Below, in pieces: positions 15,151 through 46,783 of a stretch of DNA of 53,284 bases. A program made the position numbers and the translations under genes. The DNA is from Desulfuromonas sp. SDB (GTDB lineage Bacteria; SDB-A), in NCBI GenBank assembly GCA_001412365.1, contig LKUE01000209.1, positions 1-53,284 on the forward strand, read 5' to 3'. The notes below the pieces were generated by a model, which ran no database searches, was not told where the DNA came from, and was given only the letters and a program-made list of their open reading frames with translations. Within the stretch, counting starts at the first letter, position 1. Each line of letters opens with the position of its first letter.

Positions 15151-15155
15151 GAGTA

Positions 15156-15464
15156 ATGGTGGATAAAATAAAATTAATTATAGATTTTACTGAATATTCA
15201 ACTCTCCGTTTTAAATACTCCAGACCGGGGATAATATATCCTCATAACACCCCCCATGAAATTGTAGTTCCCATACCCGGAATTATAAAACAGGTACTGG
15301 TAAAAACCGGAGATGTAATAAAAAGGGGGGATGTTATTTTAGTATTGGAAGCGATGAAATCCTACAATAAAATTATTGCTGACCATCCTGGAAAAATTAC
15401 TGAAATACTGGTAAATCCAGGAGACCGGGTGATTAAAGATCAAGTTGTAGTGAAGATGGACTGA
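15156..15464 (+). CDS. Biotin carboxyl carrier / biotinyl-domain protein
   Basis: 102 aa. Biotinyl-lysine context VLEAMKSYNKI (EAMK motif) flanked by the usual PGxI..V.V..GD.V..GD..V hammerhead pattern. Confidence 0.8.
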   Translation: MVDKIKLIIDFTEYSTLRFKYSRPGIIYPHNTPHEIVVPIPGIIKQVLVKTGDVIKRGDVILVLEAMKSYNKIIADHPGKITEILVNPGDRVIKDQVVVKMD

Positions 15465-15492
15465 AATATTTAACATTTAATTTGGAGTTATT

Positions 15493-26554: not shown

Positions 26555-27766
26555 TCAATATTGAACATTAATTTTAGGGGCAGAAAGTTTCGCCCAGTTG
26601 GGCAATTCTCCCACTAGAGGTTTGAGGTAGTTTACAAACTGGGTGGTTATAAAACTGTTTTCAGTATCAATGTACTGATCAGGCATTGATTTGGTTTTTT
26701 TAGCCACTTCAGTTAAGGAAGTTAATTGATATTGAATTGAATAATCTCCGGTTCTATGCATGGTAATTGAACCATCAGCTTCAATTGAGCTGGAAATATT
26801 GACTGCATATTCGGCAATTTCCCTGGCTTCCCAGGTATCCACTTGACTGGTGCAGCCTAAAAATGACCGTTGTAAATATCCAAAGGTATCCCCCCTCACC
26901 CGTTTTACCTTTAACTTTTCCTTTATCAGGTCTTTCAGCGCATCTCCCAGCATACCGGTGCCGGATAACTGAACATTGCCGTGGGAATCATGCTCCACTC
27001 TCTCCTGAAGCTTCACCATCATTGGATTTCCCTGTTCATCCACTATTCCTTCACTGACTGCGATGACGCACCGCCCCTGATCTGAAAGCACTTTTTCCAC
27101 ATCTTTGAGAAACCGGTCAATGCTGAAAGGTTTTTCAGGCAGATAAATCAAATGAGGACCATCCTCACTGTACTTCTTAGCCAAACCGGCAGCGGCAGTT
27201 AAAAATCCGGCGTGTCTGCCCATCACCACTCCGATGTAGACACCGGGAATTGAACGGTTGTCCAAATTTACCCCGGTAAAGGCTTGGGTTACAAATTTTG
27301 CTGCGGAAGGATAACCCGGGGTATGATCGGTAACCAACAGATCATTGTCAATGGTTTTGGGTATGTGAAAAACCCTTAAATCATAATTGTGAATATTGGA
27401 CTGCTCGTTGACAATACGGCAGGTGTCCGCAGAGTCATTGCCCCCGATGTAGAAGAAATACCTTATATCATGTTTTTTAAATACTTCAAATATTTTCTGG
27501 CAGTATTCCTGATCAGGTTTATCCCTGGTGCTGCCCAGCGCAGCACCCGGAGTGACCGCTACATCTTCTATGTTCCGGGAGGAAATTCTGCCCAAGTCAA
27601 TGAAATTTTCCTCAATAATTCCTCTAACTCCGTGGATTGCCCCGTACAGCTCAGATATATGATTATGCCTTTGAACCTGAAAGATTACTCCGGCTAAAGA
27701 TTGATTTATTACCGCAGTGGGACCACCTCCCTGAGCGATCACTGCCTTTCCCATTAATTTTGCCAT
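26555..27766 (-). CDS. pfp: 6-phosphofructokinase, probably pyrophosphate-dependent (PPi-PFK)
   Basis: Starts MAKLMGKAVIAQGGGPTAVIN, with AAGGAGAG upstream. PFK blocks IGGNDSA, IPKTIDNDL and MGRHAG. Asp and Lys occupy the positions of E. coli PfkA Gly104 and Gly124, which is the PPi-type signature. The 30-aa N-terminal extension in the ORF track (to 27856) overlaps the upstream gene and is rejected. Confidence 0.8.
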   Translation of the reverse strand: MAKLMGKAVIAQGGGPTAVINQSLAGVIFQVQRHNHISELYGAIHGVRGIIEENFIDLGRISSRNIEDVAVTPGAALGSTRDKPDQEYCQKIFEVFKKHDIRYFFYIGGNDSADTCRIVNEQSNIHNYDLRVFHIPKTIDNDLLVTDHTPGYPSAAKFVTQAFTGVNLDNRSIPGVYIGVVMGRHAGFLTAAAGLAKKYSEDGPHLIYLPEKPFSIDRFLKDVEKVLSDQGRCVIAVSEGIVDEQGNPMMVKLQERVEHDSHGNVQLSGTGMLGDALKDLIKEKLKVKRVRGDTFGYLQRSFLGCTSQVDTWEAREIAEYAVNISSSIEADGSITMHRTGDYSIQYQLTSLTEVAKKTKSMPDQYIDTENSFITTQFVNYLKPLVGELPNWAKLSAPKINVQY

Positions 27767-27780
27767 AACTCTCTCCTTAT

Positions 27781-29025
27781 TTATCTGGTAAATGCGATAA
27801 TTACTGCAGTGAGGCTGGATAAAGCCCCGATAATGGTTATATAATCCTGCCACCATTTCAAGGTCATGGAAGGAACTTCAACAATATCTCCTCTCTCCAC
27901 AATTACATTTAACCCTCTGCCCCTCACTGTTCCCTCCGCACTGTACACTACCAGTTTATCCGCCATGCCCCTTTCGGTAATACCCCCCGCCCGGTTGATA
28001 TAATCGTAAGCAGTCATCATGGGCTGATAGATAAATGATCCCGGCTGTTCCACTGCACCGGTTACCATTACATTGTTTCTGATTTCAGGAACCACAACTG
28101 TATCTTCATGCTGTAAAACCAGTTCACTGACCAGTAGGGTATCATAATAATTTACGGGAATTACCCTTCCATCCCTGATCAACTGAATGTTTCTGCGGTT
28201 AGCCCAGGGCAGGAATCCCCCTGCCTGCTCAATAACATCCTTTAAGCTTTCCCCGGGAAGAATTTCATAAACACATTCTTTGGAGGTCAGATAGGTTGAA
28301 GAGTCATAGGCTACATTTACATTTTGGGTCCTTAATCCCTCCACCGCCCCTCTGATCACCACCGTTTTTTCCATAGGAGGGAACAGCAGTACATCTCCCT
28401 CTCCTTGAAAGAAGGGATCGTACTGATAATCTCCGGTTTCTAAAAACTTAACATAGTCGGCAGTGTCCACTTCACCCCCCGGATGAATCAGCATTATCCT
28501 CCTGAGGGAAGCGGAAGGAGTTAATTCAATCTCGGTAAGATAAAACTGTCCGATCACTTCTGATATTCTCCAAAAATTAGTAACCTCTACCGGGGTGGAA
28601 GCGGTCACTTCCCCCACCAGTGAAATTACAAAATGTCTGGGTCTAACCATGACCAGGTCAACTCCCACATTGTGGTAATATTTTCTGACAATTTGAGCCA
28701 CTTCAGCTTCCACCTGCCTGAGGGTCTTACCATCTGCGTAAACAACTCCCAGGGGAATACCCTGGGTGAAATCGGCAGTGATAACACTGGTTTCACCGGG
28801 TGTAGCGGTGGTCGGTTCGGGCACAGTGGGCTGACCTCCGATGGCTACAATCATGGTGCCATCGCTGTTCACCACTAAATCCTGGATAAAGCCTTCAATT
28901 CCGCTGACCACCAATTGCAGCCGGTCCCGGGGATGAAGAATATAGGTTTCCGGATCTACCAGAAAAGCATCGGTTGGTTCACTGCTGGAACAAAACAACA
29001 TGAATAATATTGAAACCGCAACCAT
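27781..29025 (-). CDS. Polysaccharide export protein (Wza-like: Poly_export plus SLBB domains)
   Basis: 414 aa. Lipoprotein-like leader MVAVSILFMLFCSS with AAGGAG upstream. SLBB-type repeats (VTGAVEQPGSFIYQP.MTAYDYINRAGGIT, ESLKDVIEQAGGF). C-terminal hydrophobic helix. Confidence 0.7.
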   Translation of the reverse strand: MVAVSILFMLFCSSSEPTDAFLVDPETYILHPRDRLQLVVSGIEGFIQDLVVNSDGTMIVAIGGQPTVPEPTTATPGETSVITADFTQGIPLGVVYADGKTLRQVEAEVAQIVRKYYHNVGVDLVMVRPRHFVISLVGEVTASTPVEVTNFWRISEVIGQFYLTEIELTPSASLRRIMLIHPGGEVDTADYVKFLETGDYQYDPFFQGEGDVLLFPPMEKTVVIRGAVEGLRTQNVNVAYDSSTYLTSKECVYEILPGESLKDVIEQAGGFLPWANRRNIQLIRDGRVIPVNYYDTLLVSELVLQHEDTVVVPEIRNNVMVTGAVEQPGSFIYQPMMTAYDYINRAGGITERGMADKLVVYSAEGTVRGRGLNVIVERGDIVEVPSMTLKWWQDYITIIGALSSLTAVIIAFTR

Positions 29026-29238: not shown

Positions 29239-29427
29239 CTACTCTTCTTTAACTTCGATGCAGCTTACCGGGCAGTTGTTTTGACATTCCAGACAACCGG
29301 TACAGGCATCGGGATTAGCAACTTTTGCCGTATCTTCAATTTCAAAGACGTTTGGATCAGCTGGACATACATCTTGACAAACTCCGCAGGCAATACAATC
29401 AGATTCATTTACATAAGGTCTCATCAT
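29239..29427 (-). CDS. 2x[4Fe-4S] ferredoxin
   Basis: 62 aa from ATG 29427 (MMRPYV..) with AAAGGAGGT immediately upstream. Two CxxCxxCxxxCP clusters: CIACGVCQDVCP and CTGCLECQNNCP. The longer 96-aa ORF has no SD and adds a hydrophobic non-ferredoxin extension. Confidence 0.85.
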   Translation of the reverse strand: MMRPYVNESDCIACGVCQDVCPADPNVFEIEDTAKVANPDACTGCLECQNNCPVSCIEVKEE

Positions 29428-29472
29428 ACCTCCTTTATCAAACTCAATTAAATATCTAGTTAAAATTATAAA

Positions 29473-29488
29473 TGGAATATTAATTCCA
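29473..29488. promoter_or_regulatory. 6-4-6 inverted repeat in the ferredoxin leader (candidate operator or RNA hairpin)
   Basis: TGGAAT-ATTA-ATTCCA at 29473..29488. It lies between the predicted -10 element (29503..29498) and the SD of the ferredoxin gene. Confidence 0.3.
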
Positions 29489-29497
29489 ATTGCCAAA

Positions 29498-29526
29498 ATT
29501 ATATAGATTTGCTTTAAACCGGGCAA
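29498..29526 (-). promoter_or_regulatory. Sigma70-like promoter candidate for the ferredoxin gene
   Basis: On the minus strand: TTGCCC (29526..29521), a 17-nt spacer, then TATAAT (29503..29498). Confidence 0.45.
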
Positions 29527-29574
29527 CAATTATTTAGTTTGTTTTTATAAAAATTAAAAAGTTAACGTTATTTC

Positions 29575-29602
29575 TTGATAAAAATCATAGATAAAGTAAA
29601 AT
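29575..29602 (+). promoter_or_regulatory. Sigma70-like promoter candidate for the giant TPR / coiled-coil operon (near-leaderless)
   Basis: TTGATA (29575..29580), a 16-nt spacer, then TAAAAT (29597..29602). The -10 ends 9 nt before the ATG at 29612, and that ATG has no SD. Confidence 0.35.
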
Positions 29603-29611
29603 AAATTTATC

Positions 29612-32600
29612 ATGTTTGAATTCATTTTAGGAAAAGATGTCAAAAAGATTATAGAAAAAGCGCATGAGCTGGAAAATTCCGGTGAAGAAAAGAAAGCTTT
29701 ATCCTTGCTGGAAAAAGAAGCTAAAAACAAGGAAGAATACAGCTTATACCTGGAATTGGGCAGACTTCAGGCAAAAATGAATCTCGGGGCAGCAGCCCAG
29801 AGAAATCTTTCCAATGCTCATATGCTTGCTCCTGAAAACATCGACAATACTTTAGAAAGAGCTGAAGACGGGTATTTTCTGGGAGGAAGAGATCCTGAAG
29901 TAGCTGTATTTTTAGGGGAAACACATTTAGAACAGGGGAATGTCGAAAAAGCAATTGAGTACTTTCAGGAGATACCTAAAGAAAATCTGGAGAAAGAGAT
30001 AAAAACCAAACAATCCCATCTGAAAAACTTCCCTCCGGATACTGCAAATAAAGCCAAAAGATTGAATTTATGTCAGTCCATTGCAGTAATAACTGTGTTC
30101 ATAGACCAGGAATCTGCCATCCCCCTGCTGGAAAACTTATATCAGGAATTTCCCCAAACCAAGGAACTGATAGATAACACCCTGGGTTGGATGTCCAGAA
30201 ATGACTACCGTACCCCCTTCCCCCACATTCATTACGGAAGTTTCCTAACTAAGACCGATCAGCCCGAGAAAGCCATAGATTTTTTCAATAAAGCAATAAA
30301 TATTGACCGTAAATCAACCGAGAAAATAATTGCCATTCTTGAACAAAGAAAATCACACAGTCCGGAAATGGTTGATTTCCTGTTTAAACTTTACACCCTC
30401 ACCAACCAACCTGAACAAGCATTGGAATTAATTCAGAATGCTGATCTTCCTTCTGAAAAAGTAGCCAGATATTACCGGGAAATTATCAAAGGGGACAAAA
30501 AGAACCTGGAGGCTAGAAAAAATTACACTGAAAATTTACTCAAGGGAAAAAAATACTCAGAAGCTGCCCTGGAATTAGATTTTTTCAGTGATCAGCAGAA
30601 TTATTTTCCCTGGGTTCAGGAAAAAATTGATCAGATACTGGTTGAACCCAATGATAAGGCATTGTTCATCGGGGCAGAGATAAATATAAAACAGGATAAT
30701 TTAGAAAAAGCCATTGATTATCTAAATAGTTTATTGTCCAATTATCCTTCTTCCACTGAATCTATTGAAATGCTGGTATTGGATATTGTAAAAAACAATC
30801 CTGATTTTCATCCTGCTCTAATTTTATTGATAAAAGTTCTGATTGAAAAGCGGGAACAAATTTTATGCTTAATGCTATTCGAATATATGATTTTTTCAGG
30901 TTTTTCCCCTTTAATTGATGCAGCTAAACAGCTATTCAAAGAGTATGGAAAAAATCTGAAGGCAGACTTCCAATGGCTGACTGTTAGCTACATGATATCC
31001 CTTATCTCCGGTTCAGAAACCAGATCAAAGATAATCAATCAGATGGTGGAAAAGTTTCCTGACCAATTAGATGAGTTCATAGTTAAAATAGATTTGCTTT
31101 CCGACATTTATAAAGAGGTTATTCCCGCAGTAAACCAGGATATCATGTTCTTATTAGCGAAACATCCCAGTGAGGTTTGTTACGTGACCACGATTTTTTC
31201 TTCAATAAAAGTAAATTCACCCCAGGAAGCAATTAAAATCCTTCAGGAATACAAAAGCCAATTCCCCAGTAACAAATTCTCCCGAAAATTATTGTCTGAC
31301 ATAACCCAACATTTTCCTGATGATCCCGAGGTTCTTAAAACCAATATTATTGACAATCTCAAACAGAAGAAAATAAATTCTTCTCTGGAATATTTAAGAA
31401 CATTAATCAATTATCCTAAACAGGATACCTGGGTAATTGAGTTATTTAAGCGATTAAATAAATCCTACCCCAAGAACTATCAGGTACATTTTACCTACTT
31501 AGAGTTTTTACTTAAGAGGAAACTATACTCGAAATTGATTACAGAAGTAGATAAAGCAATGGAAGTTGTACCTTCCCAGGACAAATCCTACCTTCACTAC
31601 ATTAAAGGACAAGCACTTCTTGAAAATGATAAATTTGAAGAAGGCATCATCTGTCTAGCCAACAGTATTGAAACTTCTTCTCAGTACGCCCAGCAAGTTA
31701 TTGATTCTCTTTTAAAAGCAGAAGAATTTTACGATCATCCCAAGATAAAATATGTTTTGATAAAAGCTTATGCTAAGAAAAAAGAATACCAGCAGGCAGC
31801 AATAAATTTATTTTCTCTAAAAGACCATCCCAAAATCAAAAAAAGCAGGATAATTAGTGAATTTAAAGTTTTATTAAAAGATGCCCCTACTGATTCCTAT
31901 TTAAGATTTTATCTTGGAAAAATTCTCAACATAACCGGATCTATAGATGAAGCGGTAACTGAATTTCAATTAGCGGCAACTTACAACCAAGAATTAGCTG
32001 AACCAGCTTTCCAGGAAGTACAGCAAATATCCAAACAAATCCACTCGCCGGAAGTACTTCAGGCAATGGGTATATTAGCAGAACATTGTAAAAGATATGA
32101 TGTATTCTATAAAACTTTTTCAAGCTTATTCAAGCAGAAAGCCAACCAAAAAAAACTACTGCACTATATAACTGAAAAAATAGAGCAAAATCCCCAGCAA
32201 GCTATTTACAAAATTATTTTTTCAAAATTTCAGATCCTCACCGGTAACCCCGACCAGGGTTTGACTACTGCATTGAGTATAGGCGATTTAGACAATCTGG
32301 AACATCCAAGCTACGCAAATTTAATTTCAGAACTTATTGAAAAATATCCTGAAAATCCTGAATTATGGATAAGACAGGGCAAAATTCAAATGATCTCCGT
32401 TCAACCTGAACAGGGAATAAATTCCTACCTAAATGCATTTAAACTTAATCCCGATTTCAGCGACCAAATACTGGATGATTTAAAAAACATCGAAGACTTA
32501 AGCGCATCATTTCTAGCTATCCGCATTCACCTGAAGAAAAATAATTTCGATCAAGCTAAGCAGATTCTAGAAGAACATATTGAAAAATTTTCAGAAGATC

Positions 32601-33409
32601 ATATTCAAACCTTAACCGATGACATCATCAAAGCACCCCTTAATGAAGATTCACTCAGTTTGTATATTTTGCTGGTTGATCTTCTATACAAACTGGATAA
32701 ATATGAAGAAGTAATAAAAATTGTAAAGAACATTGAAAAATATCCATTTGAACCGGCATTAAGAGAAAAAATATATTCAAATATGATTCACGCAGCAGTA
32801 AAAATAGACAAAAACATCGCCGCTGAATATTTGGCTAAATTTAAAATTCTAGTTGGTCATCAAAAATTTATCCAATGGATCCTGGAACAAAGAGAAAATC
32901 AAATAAAACAATTATCAGTAAAATTTACTGAAAGCCAATCTGATCCGTTGATCTATTATAATTTAGCAGTTAAATTTATTGAAATGAATTATCTTGACCA
33001 AGCCGATCAAATCCTCACAAAAATTTTAAAAAACAATCTAACTTCTGAACAATTTGATCAAGAAAAGATCTGGTTTGAAAAATGCAGAATTAAAGTTTTG
33101 CAAAGGAACTACCACCAGGCATATTTTTTAATTAAGCAAAGAATGGATTATAATATTAAAAATGATCACTGGAGCAGTAAATACTTTAAACTACTGTTAA
33201 ATTTACAGATGGCGACATCTGATTACCGGGGAGCTCTCTCCACCTATAAAGTCGCATTTTCCCATCTGTCCCCAAAAGAACAGAACATCTATTATGATAT
33301 TGTATCCAGGGCATTTGGAGATAATGCTCTGATGATTATTAATAAAAAGCAGTCAGTTAATAAATTAATTAACCAAAACCTTATTAAAAACATCATGGAA
33401 AGCTTATGA
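29612..33409 (+). CDS. Giant all-helical TPR-like repeat protein, function unknown
   Basis: 1265-aa uninterrupted ORF. I see no signal peptide or TM segment. TPR-like helix pairs recur (..GNVEKAIEYFQEI.., ..QPEKAIDFFNKAINID.., ..DNLEKAIDYLNSLLSNYP.., ..GINSYLNAFKLNPD..). Its stop overlaps the next start (ATGA at 33406..33409). Confidence 0.8.
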   Translation: MFEFILGKDVKKIIEKAHELENSGEEKKALSLLEKEAKNKEEYSLYLELGRLQAKMNLGAAAQRNLSNAHMLAPENIDNTLERAEDGYFLGGRDPEVAVFLGETHLEQGNVEKAIEYFQEIPKENLEKEIKTKQSHLKNFPPDTANKAKRLNLCQSIAVITVFIDQESAIPLLENLYQEFPQTKELIDNTLGWMSRNDYRTPFPHIHYGSFLTKTDQPEKAIDFFNKAINIDRKSTEKIIAILEQRKSHSPEMVDFLFKLYTLTNQPEQALELIQNADLPSEKVARYYREIIKGDKKNLEARKNYTENLLKGKKYSEAALELDFFSDQQNYFPWVQEKIDQILVEPNDKALFIGAEINIKQDNLEKAIDYLNSLLSNYPSSTESIEMLVLDIVKNNPDFHPALILLIKVLIEKREQILCLMLFEYMIFSGFSPLIDAAKQLFKEYGKNLKADFQWLTVSYMISLISGSETRSKIINQMVEKFPDQLDEFIVKIDLLSDIYKEVIPAVNQDIMFLLAKHPSEVCYVTTIFSSIKVNSPQEAIKILQEYKSQFPSNKFSRKLLSDITQHFPDDPEVLKTNIIDNLKQKKINSSLEYLRTLINYPKQDTWVIELFKRLNKSYPKNYQVHFTYLEFLLKRKLYSKLITEVDKAMEVVPSQDKSYLHYIKGQALLENDKFEEGIICLANSIETSSQYAQQVIDSLLKAEEFYDHPKIKYVLIKAYAKKKEYQQAAINLFSLKDHPKIKKSRIISEFKVLLKDAPTDSYLRFYLGKILNITGSIDEAVTEFQLAATYNQELAEPAFQEVQQISKQIHSPEVLQAMGILAEHCKRYDVFYKTFSSLFKQKANQKKLLHYITEKIEQNPQQAIYKIIFSKFQILTGNPDQGLTTALSIGDLDNLEHPSYANLISELIEKYPENPELWIRQGKIQMISVQPEQGINSYLNAFKLNPDFSDQILDDLKNIEDLSASFLAIRIHLKKNNFDQAKQILEEHIEKFSEDHIQTLTDDIIKAPLNEDSLSLYILLVDLLYKLDKYEEVIKIVKNIEKYPFEPALREKIYSNMIHAAVKIDKNIAAEYLAKFKILVGHQKFIQWILEQRENQIKQLSVKFTESQSDPLIYYNLAVKFIEMNYLDQADQILTKILKNNLTSEQFDQEKIWFEKCRIKVLQRNYHQAYFLIKQRMDYNIKNDHWSSKYFKLLLNLQMATSDYRGALSTYKVAFSHLSPKEQNIYYDIVSRAFGDNALMIINKKQSVNKLINQNLIKNIMESL

Positions 33410-36400
33410 AAAAATGTCCATTAAATGAATCAATAGAAGTTTCAGAAGTAAACGGGAAAATTTCCTGCAACCAAGATTGTCTGTTCTTTGACCCAGAGCA
33501 AAAGAAGTGCAAACTGTTGGAGTTTATAAGTGGAAATAAATTAATCGAGCAGCTTGAATCAGTAAAACAAGGAATCAGTAATATTTCCGATCCAGTGGTA
33601 ACCAGCTTTCAGAAAAACAATGAAAATCTCTCCACCCTCATGGAAACATTAGACAGGTTAAATGAAAAATTCAATTCCATCTACAGCTTATTGGAAAATT
33701 TTTCCGATCAGAAATCACAGATAGACCTGGAACATCGAAATCAAATCCAGGAGTATCTGGGTAATTTAAAAGATCAGATAAATTCCTGGTCGGGGGGATT
33801 AAACGATTTAAGAGATAATCTGGTGGAGATAAATGCAAAATTACAAAATGATGAAATCATAACCTTTCTAAAAAATCAACATCAGGATCAATTAAAAACT
33901 TTAATTGAAAACCACCAACAAAATCTGTCTGAACAATTTTCCACTTCAGTTAATTCAGTGGTTTCAGGACTGGAAAATCTTTCAGTAAAATTAAATGGAA
34001 TCGAAGATAAATTTCAGCATCAAGAAATTGTGAATCAGATCAAAACCAGCACTGATTCAATGCAACAGTATTTTGACCAATTCATTAACAATATTAATAC
34101 CGCCAGTTCCCAGCAGCAGCAGCAAATTATTGATCAAACCAGTGAGTTTTTTAACCAGGTGAATTTATCTCTAAATGATATTAAACAACAACTTTCGGAT
34201 CAAAGTTTAAACGATTTGCTAAAACAACAACAGCTTCAGTATCAACAAAACCAACAGGAATTAACTTCTAGTTTATCAACATTAATCAGTGAAAATCAGT
34301 CTAATTATCAACAGCAACTGGAAAATTTAATTGATCAACTGAAATCGCCGTTATCCCTTATTGACCACAGTATTCATGAAATCAATTCAAAACCTCAATT
34401 AGATGAACTGAAATCGCAGCTTCAACAAAATCATTTGCAGAATCAGCAGTTAGCTGAAGATTTTCTAGGCCGTTTGAAAAATATCGGAGAACAAAATAAT
34501 CAAATAATCACTGATCAGATAAATTCCCAACTTCAATTAATTAGCCAAACCATTAATAGTATACCGTTGAAACTAGACGAGTTAACCCAGCATCAAAATT
34601 TCGACCAAATCATTGAACTGCTGAGAACCCAACAACAAGTTGATCAACAAAAAGTGGATGAATTGTCCAATCATCTCATTCAATCACTATCTCAAAATCG
34701 CCAAATACTTGTGGATAAATTATCTGAATACTTTGAAGGTTCTTTTAATATTTTAGAGAAAATTCCTTCAGCTCTCACTGATTTGCAAAACAATTTCGCC
34801 AATCTTAATTTAGAACAAGCAATAAATACTCAAGTTCAACAAGTCAGCTCTCAGATGAAATTAATCTGGTCTGAATTTCAGCAGATTCAATCCGAACATC
34901 ATCAAAATTTAGTGGATAATATTGGGACCAGTTTAAAATTCACCGTGGATAAATTAACCAGCATCAATCAGCTGCTTACTGATATTCAGCAAGACCCCAA
35001 ATTCAGTAAATTTGTAGGCGTTTTTCAGGAATTTCAATCTGATCAGTCATTTCAGTTCCAACAACTTTATACTACTTTAAATCAGATATCAGAGGAAATT
35101 GAAAATACTAACCGCACTCTGGTTAACCAGGATATTAAACAAATTCTATTGGAGAATTTAGATAAAAATCAGCAATTTCTTCAATCTCAATCTGAACTTC
35201 AGAAAAAAGTTAATGAAGAATATTTTCTTCAAATTAATAAGCTGTACACCTCCCTGACCAACATACACCCGAAACTAGCCAATATTGAAGATATTTTAGA
35301 GAAATTGAATTTAACCGGGCTTTTCCAGCAATTTTTAACTAACTCCGCCAGCCAAAACCAAACTTTCATTGAACAATTTAAATCCGATCAAACTGCTTTA
35401 GTTGAAAACTTAAATAATAACCTCCAACAGAATTTTGGTTTGTTGGAGAATTCAATTAAACAAAATTTGGAAAGCATATTAGTGCAGATTCCTGAAAAGA
35501 TTGAACAAATCAATGAGATTTTAATTCAGGATAAATTATTTAGTTTATTAAATCAGAATTTTCAGCAGCAATCACAACAGATCAGTATTCTAGGTGAAAA
35601 TTTAAGAAATCTCCATTCACAAAATTATCAAACTATTACTAAAAATATTGAACTGATTAATGAAAATTTAAACACACTATCCGGACAGTTAGTCAGTTCT
35701 ATCCAAAATATTGAAAACAACACCGAACAACGGGAGTTGCTTGAATATCTTCAACAAAAAGAAGTAAAAGATCGAGATTACTCTGAAGCGATGATGAAGA
35801 TAATTAACGAAAGTTCACTCAGGGCCAGCGAAGATTTAAATGAAAAATTCAATCATCTGGTTCAAAATTTATATCCATCAGTAAAAATGACCGCTTCCGG
35901 CATTTTGGACATTAAAAAAGAGTTTTCAGATAATTTTATACCCACCCTGCTAGACCATCGGAAACAAGACCGGAAATTTCTCAAAGAAGCACTCTCCCGC
36001 TGGACTTCCGCTTATATTCATGAACAGCAGCAACTTTACAGTCATCTGGAAAACTTAACTGAAAAGATGAATTCACTGGCAAATTCTTTTCAATCATTGC
36101 AATCAGAACAACTAATTGCAGCAATATCAGAGACAAGCGAGAAAAATGCTGAGTTTATCAGAACTATGTTTACAGATTGGATAAATAGCTTTAACTCTAC
36201 TCAACAAAATATAAGTGATTTACAGCAGCAGTCTCTTCAAGCCGGCAATGTCCTCAACGACAAAATAACCGAACAAGTTCAAGCAATTCAGGATTCAAAT
36301 ATAAAAACCTTAAACTTTTTATCTGAAGTGACTGACAAAATTAATTCTGCATTTGAGAACATTGAAAAGTTAGCTGAAATCCAAAGTGAAACTGACCACC

Positions 36401-36975
36401 GTATCTCTCAATTAACCGAAAAAATGGAAAAGCTTACAGAATTTCAAACAGAGAGTATCGCTAAAGAACAGGAAAGAATGGAATTTATTGAGCAGGACCG
36501 AAAAATTTCTCAAGCTAAGATGCATAATGATAGAGGAGTTGGATTTTTCTATGCAAACCAAATTCAATCAGCATATCGGGAACTGCAAAAGGCAGTTCAG
36601 CTTGCCCCGGAGATGTATGAAACTTACTTAAATTTAGGAGTAGTTTTATCTGAAATGAATGAGGTGGAAAAAGCTAAAGAGCATTTCAAGAAAGTAATTG
36701 ATTTAAATCCCGAAATAACTGAGGCATACTTGAATTTGGGTATGCTGGAGATACATGATAAAAACTTGGAAGATGCGGAAAAACTAATTAATCAAGCTCT
36801 GAAAATCTCCCCGCAGTATTCAAGGTCCTATGAAGTACTGGGAGATGTATATCTTGAAAAAAATGAAGTACAGTTAGCTGAAGATGCTTATCAGAAAGCC
36901 CTTCAATTAAATCCCCTAAATCAGGAATTGAAGTTAAAACTAAAACAGTTAAGAGGTGAAGACATTGTCGAATGA
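33406..36975 (+). CDS. Giant Gln/Asn-rich coiled-coil protein with an N-terminal 4-Cys cluster and C-terminal TPR repeats, function unknown
   Basis: 1189 aa. The N-terminus has Cys at residues 4, 21, 25 and 35. A ~1000-aa low-complexity heptad-like helical region follows (for example 23 Gln in the 81 residues 234-314, nt 34105..34347). About four canonical TPRs lie at aa 1040-1180 (..AYRELQKAVQLAPE.., ..AKEHFKKVIDLNPE.., ..AEDAYQKALQLNPLN..). Confidence 0.8.
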   Translation: MKKCPLNESIEVSEVNGKISCNQDCLFFDPEQKKCKLLEFISGNKLIEQLESVKQGISNISDPVVTSFQKNNENLSTLMETLDRLNEKFNSIYSLLENFSDQKSQIDLEHRNQIQEYLGNLKDQINSWSGGLNDLRDNLVEINAKLQNDEIITFLKNQHQDQLKTLIENHQQNLSEQFSTSVNSVVSGLENLSVKLNGIEDKFQHQEIVNQIKTSTDSMQQYFDQFINNINTASSQQQQQIIDQTSEFFNQVNLSLNDIKQQLSDQSLNDLLKQQQLQYQQNQQELTSSLSTLISENQSNYQQQLENLIDQLKSPLSLIDHSIHEINSKPQLDELKSQLQQNHLQNQQLAEDFLGRLKNIGEQNNQIITDQINSQLQLISQTINSIPLKLDELTQHQNFDQIIELLRTQQQVDQQKVDELSNHLIQSLSQNRQILVDKLSEYFEGSFNILEKIPSALTDLQNNFANLNLEQAINTQVQQVSSQMKLIWSEFQQIQSEHHQNLVDNIGTSLKFTVDKLTSINQLLTDIQQDPKFSKFVGVFQEFQSDQSFQFQQLYTTLNQISEEIENTNRTLVNQDIKQILLENLDKNQQFLQSQSELQKKVNEEYFLQINKLYTSLTNIHPKLANIEDILEKLNLTGLFQQFLTNSASQNQTFIEQFKSDQTALVENLNNNLQQNFGLLENSIKQNLESILVQIPEKIEQINEILIQDKLFSLLNQNFQQQSQQISILGENLRNLHSQNYQTITKNIELINENLNTLSGQLVSSIQNIENNTEQRELLEYLQQKEVKDRDYSEAMMKIINESSLRASEDLNEKFNHLVQNLYPSVKMTASGILDIKKEFSDNFIPTLLDHRKQDRKFLKEALSRWTSAYIHEQQQLYSHLENLTEKMNSLANSFQSLQSEQLIAAISETSEKNAEFIRTMFTDWINSFNSTQQNISDLQQQSLQAGNVLNDKITEQVQAIQDSNIKTLNFLSEVTDKINSAFENIEKLAEIQSETDHRISQLTEKMEKLTEFQTESIAKEQERMEFIEQDRKISQAKMHNDRGVGFFYANQIQSAYRELQKAVQLAPEMYETYLNLGVVLSEMNEVEKAKEHFKKVIDLNPEITEAYLNLGMLEIHDKNLEDAEKLINQALKISPQYSRSYEVLGDVYLEKNEVQLAEDAYQKALQLNPLNQELKLKLKQLRGEDIVE

Positions 36976-37255
36976 AATATATTTAAGTTTCTTAGATTCA
37001 TTGAAACAAAAAGCAAAACAATCAAATTTACAGGAATATTTTCCAAATAAAGTTAGCAATTTATTTCAATACCGGATACAAGATCAAGGTCCTGAAATTA
37101 TTTCAGAAACCACTTCCCAAACCCCTCCTCCCGTATCCTCTCCTGAAGAATCCTCCCCGTCTCCGCCCCCAGTTGAAAATGAACAGGGAGACCTATTTAA
37201 ATTTGCTGACGGAATTAGAGAATTGAAATTCGAGGATAAAGGAGAGGGGAGCTAA
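36956..37255 (+). CDS. Small Pro/Ser/Glu-rich protein, function unknown
   Basis: 99 aa. The GTG start overlaps the end of the coiled-coil gene by 20 nt. Tripartite layout: N-terminal helix, TSQTPPPVSSPEESSPSPPPVENEQ linker, and a short C-terminal amphipathic segment GDLFKFADGIRELKF. It is called as coding only because of its operon position and ORF length. Confidence 0.5.
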   Translation: MKTLSNEIYLSFLDSLKQKAKQSNLQEYFPNKVSNLFQYRIQDQGPEIISETTSQTPPPVSSPEESSPSPPPVENEQGDLFKFADGIRELKFEDKGEGS

Positions 37256-37279: not shown

Positions 37280-38080
37280 ATGACTAAATGGGCAAAAATG
37301 GATATTAAAACCGAATTGGAAATAAAAAAAATGGAAAAAGCTGGAGAACTTTTAGCCAGTATTTTAAGCGAACTTTGCACTCTCTGTGTCCCCGGAATTT
37401 CTACTAAACAGCTAGATGAAATTGCTGAAAATTTAGTTTTAGACAACAATGCACTACCCACCTTCAAAGGATACCATGGATATCCTGCTACAATATGTTC
37501 GTCAGTTAATGATGTAATTATTCATGGAATTCCCACTTCCGCTAAATTAAAATCAGGAGATATTTTAAGTATTGACATGGGATTGACTCTGGAAGGATGG
37601 ATTGCGGATTCAGCCCTGACCATTCCCATTGGAAAGGTCAGCGCCGAGGCGATGAAATTAATTGAAGTAACTCAAACTTCTTTATACCGTGGTCTTGAAT
37701 TAGCCAAACCAGGTTTCAGATTATTTGATATCAGCAGGGCAATACAGAATTATGTCGAAGATAATGGTTATTCAGTGGTGCGTGATTTTGTCGGTCATGG
37801 AGTGGGTAGAAATCTTCATGAAGATCCAAGTATCCCCAATTTCATCCCACCGCTAACTTCAATTTACCGCAATATTAAATTAAAACCGGGAATGACCCTG
37901 GCTATTGAACCCATGGTCAATCAGGGCACTCATGATGTGAAAATTATGAAGGACCGGTGGACAGTCAGAACAAGAGATAATAAATTATCTGCTCATTTTG
38001 AACACAGTATTGCCATCTGCAAAGATAAAACTGTAATTTTAACTCACCGCAAAGATGATAAAATTAACAGGGAATTGTGA
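37280..38080 (+). CDS. map: Methionine aminopeptidase, type I
   Basis: Classic Map blocks (IKT..EI..M.KAG, HGIP, DxG....G...D, FVGHG.G...HE, EPM). The true start may be the second ATG at 37298 (MDIKTELEIKKMEKAG), which aligns better with known Map N-termini. Confidence 0.93.
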   Translation: MTKWAKMDIKTELEIKKMEKAGELLASILSELCTLCVPGISTKQLDEIAENLVLDNNALPTFKGYHGYPATICSSVNDVIIHGIPTSAKLKSGDILSIDMGLTLEGWIADSALTIPIGKVSAEAMKLIEVTQTSLYRGLELAKPGFRLFDISRAIQNYVEDNGYSVVRDFVGHGVGRNLHEDPSIPNFIPPLTSIYRNIKLKPGMTLAIEPMVNQGTHDVKIMKDRWTVRTRDNKLSAHFEHSIAICKDKTVILTHRKDDKINREL

Positions 38081-40721: not shown

Positions 40722-41692
40722 CCTCAAGCAAACCACTGATATTATTGGTAGATGATGATGATTTGATTCTGGATACAATTAAAATGTCCTTAGCTGATCA
40801 ATGTTATCAATTTGTTACCGCTACCGACGGGAAAGAAGCACTGAAAATAGTTCAGCAGACCCCCCCCTCTTTAGTTATTACTGATGTTACTATGCCCATA
40901 ATGAATGGTCTGGACTTATGCAAATCAATAAAAGAAAATTATAATACCCGGTTAATACCAGTAATCGTGGTCACTGCTTTCGATGCTTTTGAGGATAAAA
41001 TCAAAGCAATTAAAGCCGGAGCTGACGAATTTTTGAGCAAGCCTTTTAATACTTTGGAACTGAAAGTAAGAATCAACGCCCTGCTCAGGTTTAAAGATCT
41101 GGTGGACCGGTTAGAGGACTTTTCCAAAGTTCTGTCAGCTTTAGCCAGAGCTATTGATGCCCGGGATCATTATACTCAGGGACATTGTACCAGGGTTTCC
41201 TATCTAGCTAAAGAAATTGGCAAAGCAATGGATCTGGAACAAAATGTCATTGATGACCTGGGATTAGCCGGATTACTGCATGATATTGGAAAAATTGGAA
41301 TTCCTGAAAGCATACTGAACAAACCAGGCAAGCTGACTCATGAAGAAATGGATATCATGAAAACCCATCCGTTGATTGGAGAAAAAATTTTAAAACCTCT
41401 AAAAACTACGGAAACTTTTAGATCTATCATCCGTTCTCATCATGAAAGACTTGACGGCACAGGATATCCTGACGGTCACCGGGCAGAACAAATAGTAGTT
41501 CCAGTTAGAGTTATTGCGGTTGCCGATGTTTATGATGCCCTTAGATCAGATCGTCCCTACCGCAATAGCCTTGACTTAAACACCACTATGGATATTATCG
41601 AACAGGAAATTGAAAGAGGTTTTTGGGACCGAGATGTGTTCTCTGAGTTAAAGAAAGTGTCCGCCAGGGATACAGTAAAATTCATGCATTAA
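40718..41692 (+). CDS. Response regulator with an HD-GYP output domain (c-di-GMP phosphodiesterase type)
   Basis: 324 aa. REC domain (ILLVDDDD.., ..ITDVTMP.., ..[11 protein letters not shown]). HD-GYP domain ([22 protein letters not shown]). Its ATG overlaps the upstream stop (ATGA). Confidence 0.9.
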
Positions 41693-42345
41693 TAGTACCA
41701 ATAATCAAGTTTAAGCATAAACTCAGCGCCGTCAATCTGGGTTGATTCAAGATGACCGTACTGGTCCCAGACCCAATTAAACAAGTACTCCTGATCCTGG
41801 TAGAAAACTGCTGCTTTTAAAGGAAAATTATGCTGATCGAACTCCACCACATAGGTAACCTCATCAAAACAATAAGCTATATGTTTTTGATCTTCATTGA
41901 TTATATCTCCCTTGACATATCCCAGACAGAGACCAAAAAACAAATCTCCAAATGGGAGCAGGGGTGAATAAGTAGTATCTTCCCAGCTGCGGTAAGTTTC
42001 CCATTGATCCTGTTCATTTTTCCACATGGTTATCAAGGAATCTTTTTCCAATTTCACCTTCAGTACAGAATATCCCATTGGTCCGGAGACATTCATAGAC
42101 CAAAATTCTCTATGGTTTATTCTTCTGATCACAAAATCACCCTGCATTTCTGACTGATAATCCTGATAATATAGAAAACCATGCCAGCTGCTGTCTTGGG
42201 GAAGTATGCGGTAATTCCCATTGTTATATAGATCAGAGTCAGAAATAATCCTTGAATTAATCAGCATTCCACAGGAACAAAACAGCATGGATAGACCCAG
42301 CAAGAGGAGAAATTTAATAACTATATTTTCTATGGAATCATTCAA
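41689..42345 (-). CDS. Hypothetical lipoprotein
   Basis: The ORF runs to 42357. TTG at 42345 follows GGAGG with a 5-nt spacer and sits just after the upstream stop. Leader ..[16 protein letters not shown] is lipoprotein-like. I recognise no family. Confidence 0.6.
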
Positions 42346-42347
42346 AT

Positions 42348-43097
42348 TTACCTCCAAACAGTTTTTAACATCGTCAATATTTTATCATCTTCTGATCTTG
42401 TGAATTTATGAAGATAAATGGAATCAGAAATTTTCCCGGTTAGCAATTTAATTTTTTCACCGACAAATGCTTCTCCCAAATAATTTACCTCTAGATGTGT
42501 AAGGGTATGATTTTTAATAAATCTATCTTCCATGCAATCCACCAGCCATTTTATATAAGCACAATTATTTACATGATTATTTACATCCAAATCACTGTTT
42601 TTAACCGACAGTTCTTCTTGAAATTGTAATTTCCCGGTTTTAGGAATCTTGTCTAGCTTATACTTTTCCTCAATAATATTTTCCATGCAAATGATATTTT
42701 TTAATTTTGAAGTAAATAAAGGTTTTTTCTCATTTACATTTAAAACCAGCCAGTAACTAAATGCTTTTACCAGCACTTGTTGATGGGAATTTAAAACTTT
42801 AAAATTACGCCAGAAATATAAACGATCTTTACCGCTGGGCCATGTATTAACAGTAATTACATCGCCCCAACGGGGATAATCATTGAAAATGATTTTTAAT
42901 CTGGATAGAACCCAGATTAAATTTTGACTGAATAAATATCTGTATCCAACTTTTAAATCCTCGGCATGCCTCCAAGCAGCTTCCTGAAGGTACTGAGTAA
43001 TAACTTCAGCTCTTGCCCTGGAATTTATATCAACCTGAAAAGAAAATATCTGAAAATCATATCTGCCCTCTTGTTTTAAAAACTTCTTTTCTTTCAT
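42348..43097 (-). CDS. Acyl-ACP thioesterase family protein
   Basis: 249 aa. Tandem hotdog pattern typical of FatA/B-like acyl-ACP thioesterases (..ITQYLQEAAWRHAEDL..LIWVLSRLKI....P.WGD.I.V.TWP.., ..D.N.HVNN..Y..W..). Confidence 0.75.
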   Translation of the reverse strand: MKEKKFLKQEGRYDFQIFSFQVDINSRARAEVITQYLQEAAWRHAEDLKVGYRYLFSQNLIWVLSRLKIIFNDYPRWGDVITVNTWPSGKDRLYFWRNFKVLNSHQQVLVKAFSYWLVLNVNEKKPLFTSKLKNIICMENIIEEKYKLDKIPKTGKLQFQEELSVKNSDLDVNNHVNNCAYIKWLVDCMEDRFIKNHTLTHLEVNYLGEAFVGEKIKLLTGKISDSIYLHKFTRSEDDKILTMLKTVWR

Positions 43098-43748
43098 AAT
43101 ATTTGAAAATTGTTTTGTTTTTTACCGGTTAAATTTTGTTGTTTTTCTTATCAAAACCTGTTTTAAAGCTACCTCTTAACCAATATAATTTGTTAAGTAA
43201 ACCTGCATAGTTTATACCCTTAACTAGAAGTTATTCTACCCTTTTACCTCAGTAAAAGCTAACAGAGTTATGGCAGTAATAATTTAAGAAATATTTCCAA
43301 GCAATTAGCTTAAAAATATTCATTTAAGAATTAATCAATATATTTTTTCAGATAAATAAATTGTCTGGAATTTTAACTTTTTTCCTATCTAATCCGCCAT
43401 CTCCTGATTTAGATGATATTAACCTAAATTTTCCTTTAAATTGGGTAATCATAATGGTTAACAAAATCTGGCAAAACATTTATCTGAATATGCTTGTTTG
43501 AAAACTGATGGAAATATTGCAAAAACATATTAAATCACCATTTTTCGATGATTTAATAAATTAAGAGGTCAATAAAATATACTGAATATAAAAAACTTAC
43601 GGAAATTAAGATTTTTACACACCCCTTTCAAATTTAATTTAAAAATTAGCATATTTATCTAACATTTGCAACATATATTTTACAATTTTTATAATTTAAA
43701 TTAGAAATAATCAAATCTGCTGATTATTTATTATTATACCAATAAAAT

Positions 43749-44728: not shown

Positions 44729-45670
44729 TTATTCAACAACAATTAACTTACCACTGGTAACCTGACCATTGGCAGTTACTTTGTAGATATAGGTTCCCTG
44801 ATTGGCTTGGTCAAAGGTAAATGAACCTTCGCCCTGGAAAGAACCGCTGAACAGTTGATCAATCTGGCGTCCGGAAAGGTCAAAAACTTCCACGGTCAGA
44901 TCTACTCTGTCTGCAACTGATAAGCTGATAGTGGGGGTATTGTTGAAATCATTAACAGTTACTGAGTAAGCTGCTGGTCCTTCCACCTGCTCTTCCACAC
45001 CCAGTTCTGTTCCGATTAGGACAATACCGATTTCCAGAGGTTCTCCCCACTGGGTAACAGCAGATGTCCAGTTGGGAACACCCAAAACCTGTGATCTGAA
45101 ATAGAGAGGAGAACTGTTTCCGATTCCGGATTGACACTGCCAGCCAGTCTGTCCGTTGACGGTGAAAACAGTGGAAGGTTGAACTTCAATCCACCAAGTA
45201 CCTGCGGTGATGTTAAGGCTGTAGGAAGTCACATCCATGGTGAGGTTATATTTATCAGTGCCAATAGTAGTTGCTGTAAAATCAGCCGCTTCTACCACTA
45301 TTTCCACAGTGGGATTAACCTCGGGGGTTCCTGAATTGTCAGCATACAATAGTATATGTACGTTGGGAACATTAGCCCAGGTGGTAAATCCGTTCCAGTT
45401 TGACCACCAGGTAATCACTGTATCCACTTGCCAATCGGAAGTTGGGGAGATATCATCAGCAATATCTGCTTCAAAAGGATAAACACTGTCCAATTGGCAG
45501 GCGTATCCGTTAGCGGAAAGGGTATCCGGTACTTGCTGAAGTAGGACTGCCCGGTTGAGTTCGCCTACCGGCATTTGAGGCTGGCTGGTTCCAATGCTAT
45601 GTTCCATTAAAACCCCAGCATTTAAACTCACTGCCAGCATTGCAATTAACAACAACATCATAGTTTTCAT
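44729..45670 (-). CDS. Secreted T9SS-sorted protein, N-terminal domain unknown
   Basis: 313 aa. Signal peptide MKTMMLLLIAMLAVSLNA, with GAGGAG upstream. The C-terminus ..VFDLSGRQIDQLFSG..YIYKVTANGQVTSGKLIVVE matches the same type-A T9SS sorting pattern as the 67..2742 protein. Confidence 0.8.
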   Translation of the reverse strand: MKTMMLLLIAMLAVSLNAGVLMEHSIGTSQPQMPVGELNRAVLLQQVPDTLSANGYACQLDSVYPFEADIADDISPTSDWQVDTVITWWSNWNGFTTWANVPNVHILLYADNSGTPEVNPTVEIVVEAADFTATTIGTDKYNLTMDVTSYSLNITAGTWWIEVQPSTVFTVNGQTGWQCQSGIGNSSPLYFRSQVLGVPNWTSAVTQWGEPLEIGIVLIGTELGVEEQVEGPAAYSVTVNDFNNTPTISLSVADRVDLTVEVFDLSGRQIDQLFSGSFQGEGSFTFDQANQGTYIYKVTANGQVTSGKLIVVE

Positions 45671-45790: not shown

Positions 45791-46783
45791 TTAATAAATT
45801 GGAGATAAATCAACAAACCAGATAAATCCCCGGGGAATTCTTCCTGCATGGGCTACAAATAACAGGCTATCTCCCCGGGCTAGTCTTTCCGCAGGGGAAG
45901 TTTCACTGCAGGTTGCCACCACCTGCCCTTCCCGGTCAACTGCTATAACTCCCTGAACATCTGCAGCCACCAAGATGAAATCGCCAAAACCGACAAGATC
46001 GTAAGCGGGAAAATCAATTATATTTTTTACCACTTCCGGTTCATGGGGGTTGCTGACATCAACAAGGTACAATCCTTCACTTTCTCCAGCAACAAAAAGC
46101 ATGGAATCAACTAACACCATATCCGCTATTGCTGGCAGATCTTCCAGTTGGGATAATTTTTCAAAATTACTGTCATTAAACCTGAATAAAAATAATTCTT
46201 TGCTGTCCCAACAGGCTGCAAATATTATATTATTCCCCATTTCCACCGAGGATACTGTTCCTGATAATCCTACCTTATCCAACAAGGAAAACTTTAAGTA
46301 ATCATTATCTGAATCTTGTCTGTAATACGCCTGCAATCCTGCTTTTCCTGCGGCACAGAAAACAAAGTTATCCGTAATTTCTAAATCAAAAGCAAAAAAA
46401 TTTGAATCATTGCTGTCAATCAGTCTACCTACTGCTCTGAAATTCTCTCCGCTTAGGTCAACAAATAAACCTCCATCCGAACCTTCCATTATTATCAGGT
46501 ATTGGTCAATAATTTTAAGATCCCTGACCAAATACCCCTCTCTGGTCAGATGACCGATTTTTGAATTTGATGGGTCTGCAGAAAGATCCCAAGCCTCAAC
46601 AACCTGTTTGCTCAAGCCATCAAAAGTGGCAAATAACAAACTGTCCTTGGCTGCAATTGAAGAACAGGTTCCGGTAATTGAATCCACTACATTTAGATTC
46701 ACCGGTTCAGTTTCTACCGGAGAAGAACAGGAAATCAACAGCAGATTAAACAAAATTGTCATTATCAGAATATTTCTAATCAT
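45791..46783 (-). CDS. LVIVD-repeat beta-propeller lipoprotein
   Basis: Start taken at ATG 46783 (MIRNILIMTILFNLLLISCSS, lipobox LISC). The ORF extends to 46822. LVIVD-type repeats are present, for example GLYLVDVSNPHEPEVV and VIAVDREG. Confidence 0.7.
   Translation of the reverse strand: MIRNILIMTILFNLLLISCSSPVETEPVNLNVVDSITGTCSSIAAKDSLLFATFDGLSKQVVEAWDLSADPSNSKIGHLTREGYLVRDLKIIDQYLIIMEGSDGGLFVDLSGENFRAVGRLIDSNDSNFFAFDLEITDNFVFCAAGKAGLQAYYRQDSDNDYLKFSLLDKVGLSGTVSSVEMGNNIIFAACWDSKELFLFRFNDSNFEKLSQLEDLPAIADMVLVDSMLFVAGESEGLYLVDVSNPHEPEVVKNIIDFPAYDLVGFGDFILVAADVQGVIAVDREGQVVATCSETSPAERLARGDSLLFVAHAGRIPRGFIWFVDLSPIY

Follow-up and report, generated by a model that had tools for sequence, protein, structure and literature searches.

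The contig LKUE01000209.1 of Desulfuromonas sp. SDB (assembly GCA_001412365.1), of which positions 1 to 53,284 were analyzed (this whole stretch of 53,284 nt is hereafter referred to as the window), contains three consecutive genes on the forward strand, A, B and C, spanning 29612..37255. These genes are tentatively interpreted as the translationally coupled head of an operon that is confined to a small lineage of the WOR-3 type and whose products would form a structural or scaffolding complex in the cytoplasm, with an estimated probability of about 0.45. Judging from the comparison with related loci, A, B and C are real, conserved genes; selection on the trio is indicated by the long frames that were kept open, by the preserved layout of overlaps and Shine–Dalgarno (SD) sequences and by the blocky distribution of conservation. 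The products are composed of repeat and interaction modules, have no enzymatic signature and are apparently cytoplasmic: they are net acidic, and no signal peptide or transmembrane segment was detected, nor was one conserved between orthologues, in agreement with the initial annotation of the window. The same annotation placed the trio outside characterized families, and this was upheld, as the searches of Pfam, NCBIfam, PADLOC, PHROGs and the PDB and those with Foldseek returned only generic tetratricopeptide repeats (TPRs), and no full-length homologue of the large proteins was found in any characterized family. On the sequence data, the trio represents three orphan families that are co-conserved and form an undescribed system in the weak sense.

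Gene Layout, Start Codons and Candidate Promoter

Gene A (29612..33409, + strand) encodes a protein of 1265 aa predicted to be an all-helical TPR-like solenoid of about 35 hairpins. Gene B (33406..36975, + strand) encodes a protein of 1189 aa with a four-cysteine (Cys4) motif, a rod of 67-residue repeats and four TPRs, and gene C (36965..37255, + strand) encodes 96 aa when read from a TTG codon, with an 11-nt overlap with the end of B. The six-frame list of open reading frames (ORFs) contained the three consecutive same-strand frames of 1265, 1189 and 99 aa reported initially, and the ATGA overlap of 4 nt that couples the stop of A to the start of B (33406..33409) was likewise found as described. 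The GC content of the trio was 0.31–0.365, which is below that of most of the flanking sequence; since the stop frequency at 33% GC can be reasoned to be approximately 0.07 per codon, ORFs of 1265 and 1189 codons cannot have arisen by chance.

The start of C required revision. The initial annotation had used GTG 36956, giving an ORF at 36956..37255 with 99 aa and a 20-nt overlap with B, whereas TTG 36965 is almost certainly the true start, because the TTG codon and the 11-nt B/C overlap were present in all five other loci, preceded by GAGGTG or GAGGAG as an upstream SD (6–7 nt 5' of the TTG in five loci). A product of 96 aa at the position of C was also called by the Prokaryotic Genome Annotation Pipeline (PGAP) in a contig 99% identical to the window. 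The GTG at 36956–58 is part of the SD of C (GAGGTG, 36953..36958, + strand), which lies within the codons for the conserved "LRGxD" C-terminus of B. It should be noted that, because this SD sits inside the "LRG[EG]D" codons of B, the bases at 36953..36958 and their equivalents in the relatives denoted L005–L008 below are under a dual constraint, from protein sequence and from ribosome binding.

Genes B and C have clear SDs, each located inside the preceding gene, in contrast to A, which has none. A sigma-70-like promoter candidate, TTGATA-16-TAAAAT, was located at 29575..29602 (+ strand), with 9 nt between the end of the −10 element and the start codon ATG of A; these nine bases are A or T only, so that this claim of the initial annotation was confirmed together with the lack of an SD. 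Promoter-like matches were not enriched in the region (30 found versus 34.5 expected from shuffles), and the match to the consensus therefore means little by itself. Support for the −10 element comes instead from its positional conservation: "GTAAAATA" occurs 9–10 nt before the ATG in four loci, again with no SD, and the A proteins of these loci are only ~35% identical. It is reasonable to suppose that the mRNA of A is leaderless or near-leaderless and that B and C are then translated by coupling, as the near-leaderless start without an SD was kept in relatives.

Conservation and Distribution of the Trio

The divergent relative loci are denoted L001–L003 and L005–L008, and the 99%-identical contig is denoted L009; the arrangement of each was read only as far as its contig extends. 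The order A–B–C with the same overlaps was found in about five other metagenome-assembled genomes (MAGs), mostly labelled WOR-3, with protein identities of 26–35%. The 4-nt A/B overlap was kept in L001, L002, L003, L005 and L009, and genes of 94–107 aa were called at the position of C in L006–L009. Consequently, synteny, which had been proposed initially as a check, held for the trio, since in each readable related locus the genes lie side by side and overlap in the same way. The full-length orthologues of A, P0002 and P0003 (34–35% identity), belong to MAGs annotated as "candidate division WOR-3" and not to Cloacimonadota, as had been assumed for the related genomes, and P0001 is the 99% copy. 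Locus L005 (CAYNIW010000002.1, 155 kb) is titled "uncultured Desulfuromonadaceae bacterium", yet it is collinear with the loci of the WOR-3 MAGs, and the A protein that it encodes is nearly identical to P0002 of a WOR-3 MAG; its label or binning is probably wrong.

Few homologues were recovered. The word-indexed search found three homologues of A only, the scan of GTDB species genome contigs yielded two loci, and neither the two scans of JGI metagenomes nor the scan of viral contigs yielded any locus or relative. The word-indexed search with full-length B was swamped by TPR matches, and the query 780–1189 gave three orthologue fragments; an exhaustive phmmer search with residues 1–1030 of B against 1.84 billion representatives returned nothing but B and two fragments of orthologues. 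In most assemblies the sequence breaks off within B, where the contigs of L001, L002, L003, L006, L007 and L008 end. This is explained by repeats such as those of L005, whose B gene (13732..16830) carries an exact duplication of 201 aa, i.e., three units. Lineages vary in how many repeat units they carry, with ~14 in the window and ~10 in L005. A literature search that combined WOR-3 with TPR or cell morphology returned nothing.

The 67-Residue-Repeat Rod of Protein B

The rod of B (33658..36300, + strand, residues ~85–965) comprises ~14 tandem helical units of 67 residues, which were placed using an iterated repeat hidden Markov model. BLOSUM autocorrelation gave peaks at 67 and 134 residues for B of the window (z = 4.2 and 3.1, respectively) and at 67, 134 and 201 residues for B of L005 (z = 5.4, 4.5 and 7.2, respectively), and no tandem repeat was found at the DNA level by TRF. 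The rod had been described initially as a coiled coil, but its periodicity is not that of heptads. The local periodicity of the residues LIVMF in 45-residue windows peaked at 3.65–3.70, not at 3.5, and residues 202–871 gave a single sharp peak at 3.72 = 67/18, with a power of 9.2 versus a shuffle maximum of 1.97 (0 of 300 shuffles). The power at the heptad value of 3.50 was 0.19, i.e., background, and a canonical heptad coiled coil was thus ruled out for B. The peak at 3.72 recurred in B of L005 (power 8.2), despite an identity of only 9–24% between the two rods.

The phase of the rod is kept over residues ~202–871 and stays within ~65 degrees over ten consecutive 67-residue windows. The projected repeat starts 404 and 713 are 309 residues apart, which equals 4 × 67 + 41 residues and 83.0 turns of 3.72; this phase-neutral excess of 41 residues is a more independent hint of a continuous seam. 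In the stacked units, the core spacing was 4-3-4-4-4-3-4-3-4-3-4, a mix of hendecad-like and heptad-like steps, and each unit contained a charged, core-less segment of ~13 residues (EKEARDRE-like), with proline present in most units. The hydrophobic seam is narrow and rich in L and I, and such a core may favor more than two strands. A slight right-handed supercoil is predicted, because an undistorted helix has 3.63 residues per turn and thus fewer than the 3.72 of B (the principle by which handedness follows from residues per turn is summarized in PMC9858780). The PDB sequence search with the rod gave just a chance-level match to TatB (E-value = 0.016).

Termini and Composition of Protein B

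At the N-terminus, B carries a Cys4 motif (33406..33525, + strand) of the form MKxCP-x(11-16)-C-x3-C-x9-C-x-LLE, which is a putative metal-binding knuckle. The four cysteines are the only ones in the protein (residues 4, 21, 25 and 35 in the window and 4, 16, 20 and 30 in L005), and the motif was also kept in the fragments of L001–L003. A small beta hairpin was modelled by AlphaFold2 (AF2) at residues 27–36. The N-terminal 55 residues of three orthologues had no Pfam match at E ≤ 10, and the spacing C-x(11-16)-C-x3-C-x9-C, with no CxxC, differs from that of known zinc ribbons and Fe-S sites. The initial statement that the trio has no transmembrane segment, Walker motif or catalytic motif stands, as Walker A, HExxH, CxxC and conserved segments of transmembrane grade were not found; the conserved Cys4 of B had been missed.

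Toward the other end of the rod, a conserved segment (NLYPSVKMTASGI...DRKFLKEALSRW; 35848..36045, + strand, residues ~815–880) contains invariant alignment columns; identity between B of the window and that of L005 was 37% over residues 801–900 and 9–24% over the first 800. Used as a separate query in the family scan, residues 800–1030 gave nothing beyond generic TPR. The C-terminal TPR domain (36511..36960, + strand, residues ~1036–1185) consists of four TPRs and is the best conserved part of B, with 45–48% identity to L005 and an AF2 pLDDT (predicted local distance difference test) of 63–84. In Pfam, residues 1036–1185 matched TPR_2 with 74.3 bits (cut-off 27) and TPR_1 with 73.5 bits (cut-off 27.8).

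B is acidic (101 K+R versus 168 D+E) and has no hydrophobic segment (maximum KD19 = 0.74). It had been characterized as rich in Q and N, which is correct for the window (Q 13.2%, N 9.9%) but not as a family trait, since this is absent from the orthologues, B of L005 being rich in S, E and K instead, and reflects the composition of the lineage; a prion-like Q/N domain was accordingly ruled out. The AF2 model of full-length B had a pLDDT of 44, was considered unreliable and was not used for fold search.

Proteins A and C

Protein A matched the Pfam families TPR_19 (86.3 bits, cut-off 25), TPR_14 (80.3 bits, cut-off 23.5) and TPR_16 (51.1 bits, cut-off 32.7), with weak matches to ARM_TT21 and HEAT_Nup120, and A and the C-terminus of B belong to the TPR superfamily (Pfam TPR clan). 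The NCBIfam equivalogs (PrsT, MamA, LapB, BcsC and others) were all far under their cut-offs. A 17-residue (34/2) hydrophobic harmonic was found in A (z = 18.9) and in its L005 orthologue (z = 19.0), arising mainly from residues ~200–800 as evaluated in 200-residue windows. The AF2 model of A (residues 1–1200, four sequences) had a pLDDT of 76 and 71 short helices of ~10–17 residues, with low confidence at 1–93, 807–862 and 1127–1149; in this model, A is an alpha-solenoid formed by a near-uninterrupted array of ~35 TPR-like hairpins. A lacks Walker and catalytic motifs and has no transmembrane segment that is shared by its orthologues.

The N-terminal 100 residues of A (29612..29911, + strand) are the most conserved stretch of the trio, with 66% identity to L005 versus 34% overall. 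Their AF2 pLDDT was 33–62, and as a separate query in the family scans they matched nothing other than generic TPR. Foldseek comparison of the A model with the PDB revealed IFT139/TTC21B, SKI3, Ctr9, Naa15 and OGT, all of which are TPR solenoids (E-value from 3 × 10−13 to 1 × 10−6, identity 8–14%). Because the TM-scores were just 0.08–0.23, these matches are generic, and the modelled likeness is one of repeat type only, not of shared architecture or ancestry. The PDB sequence search with A returned designed consensus TPRs only.

Protein C was not assigned to any family by Pfam, NCBIfam, PHROGs or PADLOC. In the alignment of five sequences, which are 25–33% identical overall, its N-terminal ~45 residues are conserved with the pattern SNxI[YF]..L....K.K....[YF]F......F.[YI]K, the middle is a variable linker, and a motif D[LI]F-x(1,2)-F-x2-GIRE[LI]xF[ED]D (37190..37237, + strand), with invariant D, F, F, G, I, R, E, F and D, stands a few residues from the end. 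The linker is Pro-rich in the window only; the description of C as a Pro-rich protein thus applies to the window (10% P) and does not extend to the orthologues, and the proline content, too, reflects the composition of the lineage.

Proposed Organization of the Complex and Comparison with Known Systems

In the scaffold interpretation, B would self-associate through its non-heptad seam (18 turns per 67 residues) into a long rod of the order of 100 nm, possibly of higher order or filamentous. A helix rises by ~0.15 nm per residue, so that ~800 residues would span ~120 nm. The TPR surfaces of A and of the C-terminus of B would recruit partners, the conserved C-terminal peptide of C and the highly conserved N-terminus of A would serve as docking elements, and coupled translation would set the stoichiometry. 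Conservation is concentrated at the N-terminus of A, in the TPR domain of B and at the C-terminus of C, as expected for interfaces. Candidate cellular roles would be in shape, polarity, spacing or tethering.

A more specific form of this interpretation, in which B is the core of an undescribed cytoskeletal or "ruler" element and forms a WOR-3-specific lattice or spacer with A and C, is considered unlikely. According to it, B would be a rod of ~100–130 nm formed by a slightly right-supercoiled, non-heptad coiled coil that makes 18 turns in 67 residues, capped by the metal-binding knuckle at one end and by the TPR head at the other, and the solenoid A of ~35 TPRs and the small adaptor C would complete a cell-organizing lattice or spacer. 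If the scaffold interpretation is correct, a phylum without cultured members would have its own cytoskeleton-like scaffold, and B would provide the coiled-coil field with a natural example of a rare geometry, in which ~800 residues follow a clean periodicity of 67/18 (3.72). The more immediate and smaller value lies in the corrected start of the small gene, in the definition of three orphan families with conserved interaction-type blocks and in the explanation of the assembly breaks in B.

In kind, B is closest to the coiled-coil-rich, intermediate filament-like (IF-like) proteins of bacteria and A to large TPR scaffolds. B resembles Scy, FilP, crescentin and Ccrp in having a very long cytoplasmic alpha-helical rod and no enzymatic domain, and the long amphipathic-helix rod with a continuous hydrophobic seam that characterizes IF-like proteins was found in B (periodicity of 3.72 over residues 202–871, all-helix prediction). 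Cofactor-independent self-assembly into filaments, in vitro or in vivo, is a further mark of IF-like proteins. The Streptomyces Scy rod of >1000 residues consists almost entirely of hendecads, the rods of Scy and FilP are hendecad-rich with an Ala-rich core, and both proteins are marked by a DivIVA-like N-terminal motif (PMC9858780). Like these rods, that of B departs from heptads, with its period of 3.72. However, B has no sequence similarity to Scy, FilP, crescentin or Ccrp, and it differs from Scy and FilP in its 67-residue (18-turn) super-repeat with a charged core-less segment of ~13 residues, in its L/I-rich rather than Ala-rich core and in both ends, as the Cys4 motif and the four TPRs are unique to B. 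DivIVA was not detected in B either at E ≤ 1 in the full-length Pfam scan or at E ≤ 10 in the first 55 residues.

Among TPR proteins, All4981 of Anabaena polymerizes into filaments (Springstein et al. 2020, PMC7002697) and shows that TPR proteins can be cytoskeletal; it is a cyanobacterial protein of ~650 aa that is co-transcribed with a neighboring gene and binds its product (PMC7002697). It shares with the trio a TPR-repeat protein and a proposed cytoskeletal or scaffold role, but the resemblance is one of kind only, since All4981 has no 67-residue rod and the searches performed here detected no homology to it. The eukaryotic IFT139/TTC21B, SKI3/TTC37, Ctr9 and Naa15 are, like A, TPR solenoids with lengths of 800–1300 residues or above, and they serve as platforms for assembly, whereas the partners of those complexes are absent here. 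With regard to the bacterial TPR assembly factors (PrsT, PilW/PilF, MamA, Tgl and NlpI), the best NCBIfam matches were PrsT and MamA for A and PilW, Tgl and MamA for the C-terminus of B, all far below the cut-offs, and neither A nor B has a lipoprotein signal or the matching gene context. In particular, A scored 58.9 bits versus 312.2 for PrsT (TIGR02917, XrtA/PEP-CTERM TPR lipoprotein) and has no N-terminal hydrophobic segment, the C-terminus of B scored 68 bits versus 154 for PilW/PilF (TIGR02521, type IV pilus TPR lipoprotein), and A and B scored 45.9 and 42.7 bits, respectively, versus 200 for MamA (NF040959). Apart from the generic TPR superfamily, no family membership is supported by the sequence comparisons.

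Alternative Explanations and Genomic Context

Several observations weigh against the scaffold interpretation. The rod geometry is derived from sequence periodicity alone (AF2 pLDDT of B = 44), and the constant phase of the rod is partly a by-product of homologous repeats of equal length. The trio evolves faster than its neighbors (26–34% versus 50–63% identity), which fits relaxed constraint as well as a structural role; about 25 kb around it is collinear in related genomes, so that the adjacency of the three genes is expected anyway. Finally, the family is tiny and confined to a handful of MAGs, which are too few for co-occurrence statistics.

The most probable of the alternatives is that A, B and C are lineage-specific, fast-evolving repeat proteins ("filler") without a joint function, whose adjacency and overlaps were inherited within a collinear region. 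The order upstream of the trio in the window and relatives is SerRS, Omp85/BamA-like, TamB, PEPCK (−), PFK (−), SLBB export protein (−) and ferredoxin (−), then A, and C is followed by map, M18 aminopeptidase, DegT and a response regulator with an HD domain. Since the entire neighborhood is collinear, adjacency is weak evidence for a joint function. Between the window and L005, the identity was 34% for A, 26% for B and 29% for C, and 63% for PFK, 50% for SLBB, 53% for map, 56% for M18, 54% for DegT and 57% for the response regulator (RR-HD). The variable repeat number, with the recent 201-aa duplication in L005, the presence in a handful of MAGs only and the GC content of 31–36%, which is under that of most of the flanking sequence, point in the same direction. 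Nevertheless, frames of 1032–1265 codons have stayed open at such divergence, and the layout of the two overlaps (4 nt and 11 nt), of the internal SDs and of the start of A without an SD was kept nucleotide for nucleotide. Conservation is maintained in blocks (residues 1–100 of A, 66%; TPR domain of B, 45–48%; the Cys4 motif; the termini of C), and the exact period of 3.72 was found in both B orthologues despite their identity of 9–24%. On balance, a trio without joint function is rather unlikely.

The genes that follow C would suggest a scaffold associated with ribosomes or nascent chains, acting with map and the M18 aminopeptidase by analogy with Naa15 or SKI3. The map gene (type I methionine aminopeptidase, 37280..38080, + strand; TIGR00500, 310 bits) is possibly co-transcribed with the trio; its start called by PGAP in the 99%-identical contig corresponds to 37298, and no terminator-like site was found in the 24–42 nt between C and map. 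Both peptidase genes are on the strand of the trio, the order C–map–M18 peptidase–DegT was kept in L005, L007 and L008, and SKI3 and Naa15 are among the Foldseek matches of A, including NatA-MetAP2-ribosome entries. However, the TM-scores of these matches are only 0.1–0.2 and reflect generic TPR repeats, the conserved order runs on to unrelated genes (DegT and the response regulator), as in ordinary collinearity, and no feature of B or C indicates ribosomes. An association of this kind is therefore regarded as improbable.

An exported or envelope-associated fiber or tether is also doubtful, to about the same degree. Envelope genes (BamA-like, TamB, SLBB export protein, GT2, SLT, SpoIID and LD-carboxypeptidase) are present on both sides of the trio, and stalks made of long non-heptad coiled coils are a typical feature of surface adhesins, being known from the stalks of trimeric autotransporters and from tetrabrachion. 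The neighboring envelope genes are, however, on the opposite strand or set apart by housekeeping genes. No signal peptide, lipobox, transmembrane segment or beta-barrel was seen (the maximum KD19 of B, 0.74, is given above), and the clustered N-terminal Cys4 would better fit a metal site in the cytoplasm.

It is very improbable that B is a surface-active amphipathic-helix protein, similar to apolipoproteins, perilipins or LEA proteins, and coats the surface of a membrane, lipid body or inclusion instead of assembling as a coiled coil. Lipid-binding amphipathic helices of that kind have an 11/3 period, to which the hydrophobic period of 3.65–3.72 in B is close, and proline occurs in most rod units; but the excess of acidic residues (168 D+E versus 101 K+R) would be a disadvantage at the anionic membranes of bacteria, the narrow, L/I-rich seam has a 3-4-4 spacing, and Pfam gave no apolipoprotein, perilipin or LEA match at E ≤ 1. 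An SMC-, Rad50- or MukB-like protein (no ATPase head and no Walker A; sub-threshold matches of the coiled-coil region to Rad50, 17.6 bits versus 700, and JetC, 16.4 bits), an anti-phage defense system (weak coiled-coil/TPR noise in PADLOC, with ZorA at 18 bits) and a phage origin (only a TPR match to phrog_7590 in PHROGs and no relative in the viral contig scan) were rejected.

Other Features of the Window

Contrary to the initial description of the rest of the window as recognizable housekeeping genes, the trio is not alone in being unassigned, since the ORFs at 4001..5755 (+), 41689..42357 (−), 44729..45670 (−) and 45791..46822 (−) had no Pfam match at E ≤ 1 × 10−6. The sole Pfam match of the 891-aa protein encoded at 67..2742 (−) was the Lamin Tail Domain. 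The Rfam and tRNA scans of the window gave zero matches, and this includes an AT-rich gap of 650 bp (GC ~27%) between two minus-strand genes at 43098..43748, in which no ORF of at least 150 aa was found.

The ferredoxin ORF upstream of A (29239..29529, − strand) encodes 96 aa in the window and in the 99%-identical contig, versus 59 aa in the WOR-3 loci. The additional N-terminal ~35 residues are hydrophobic (MLPGLKQIYIILAIGINIPFIILTRYLIEF) and may represent a membrane anchor or an over-extended start. The longest PFK ORF (26555..27856, − strand, 433 aa) overlaps the SLBB gene (27781..29025, − strand) by 76 nt; because 403 aa is the length both of the orthologues and of the product called by PGAP, the true start of PFK is taken to be an internal ATG (MAKLMGKAV...).

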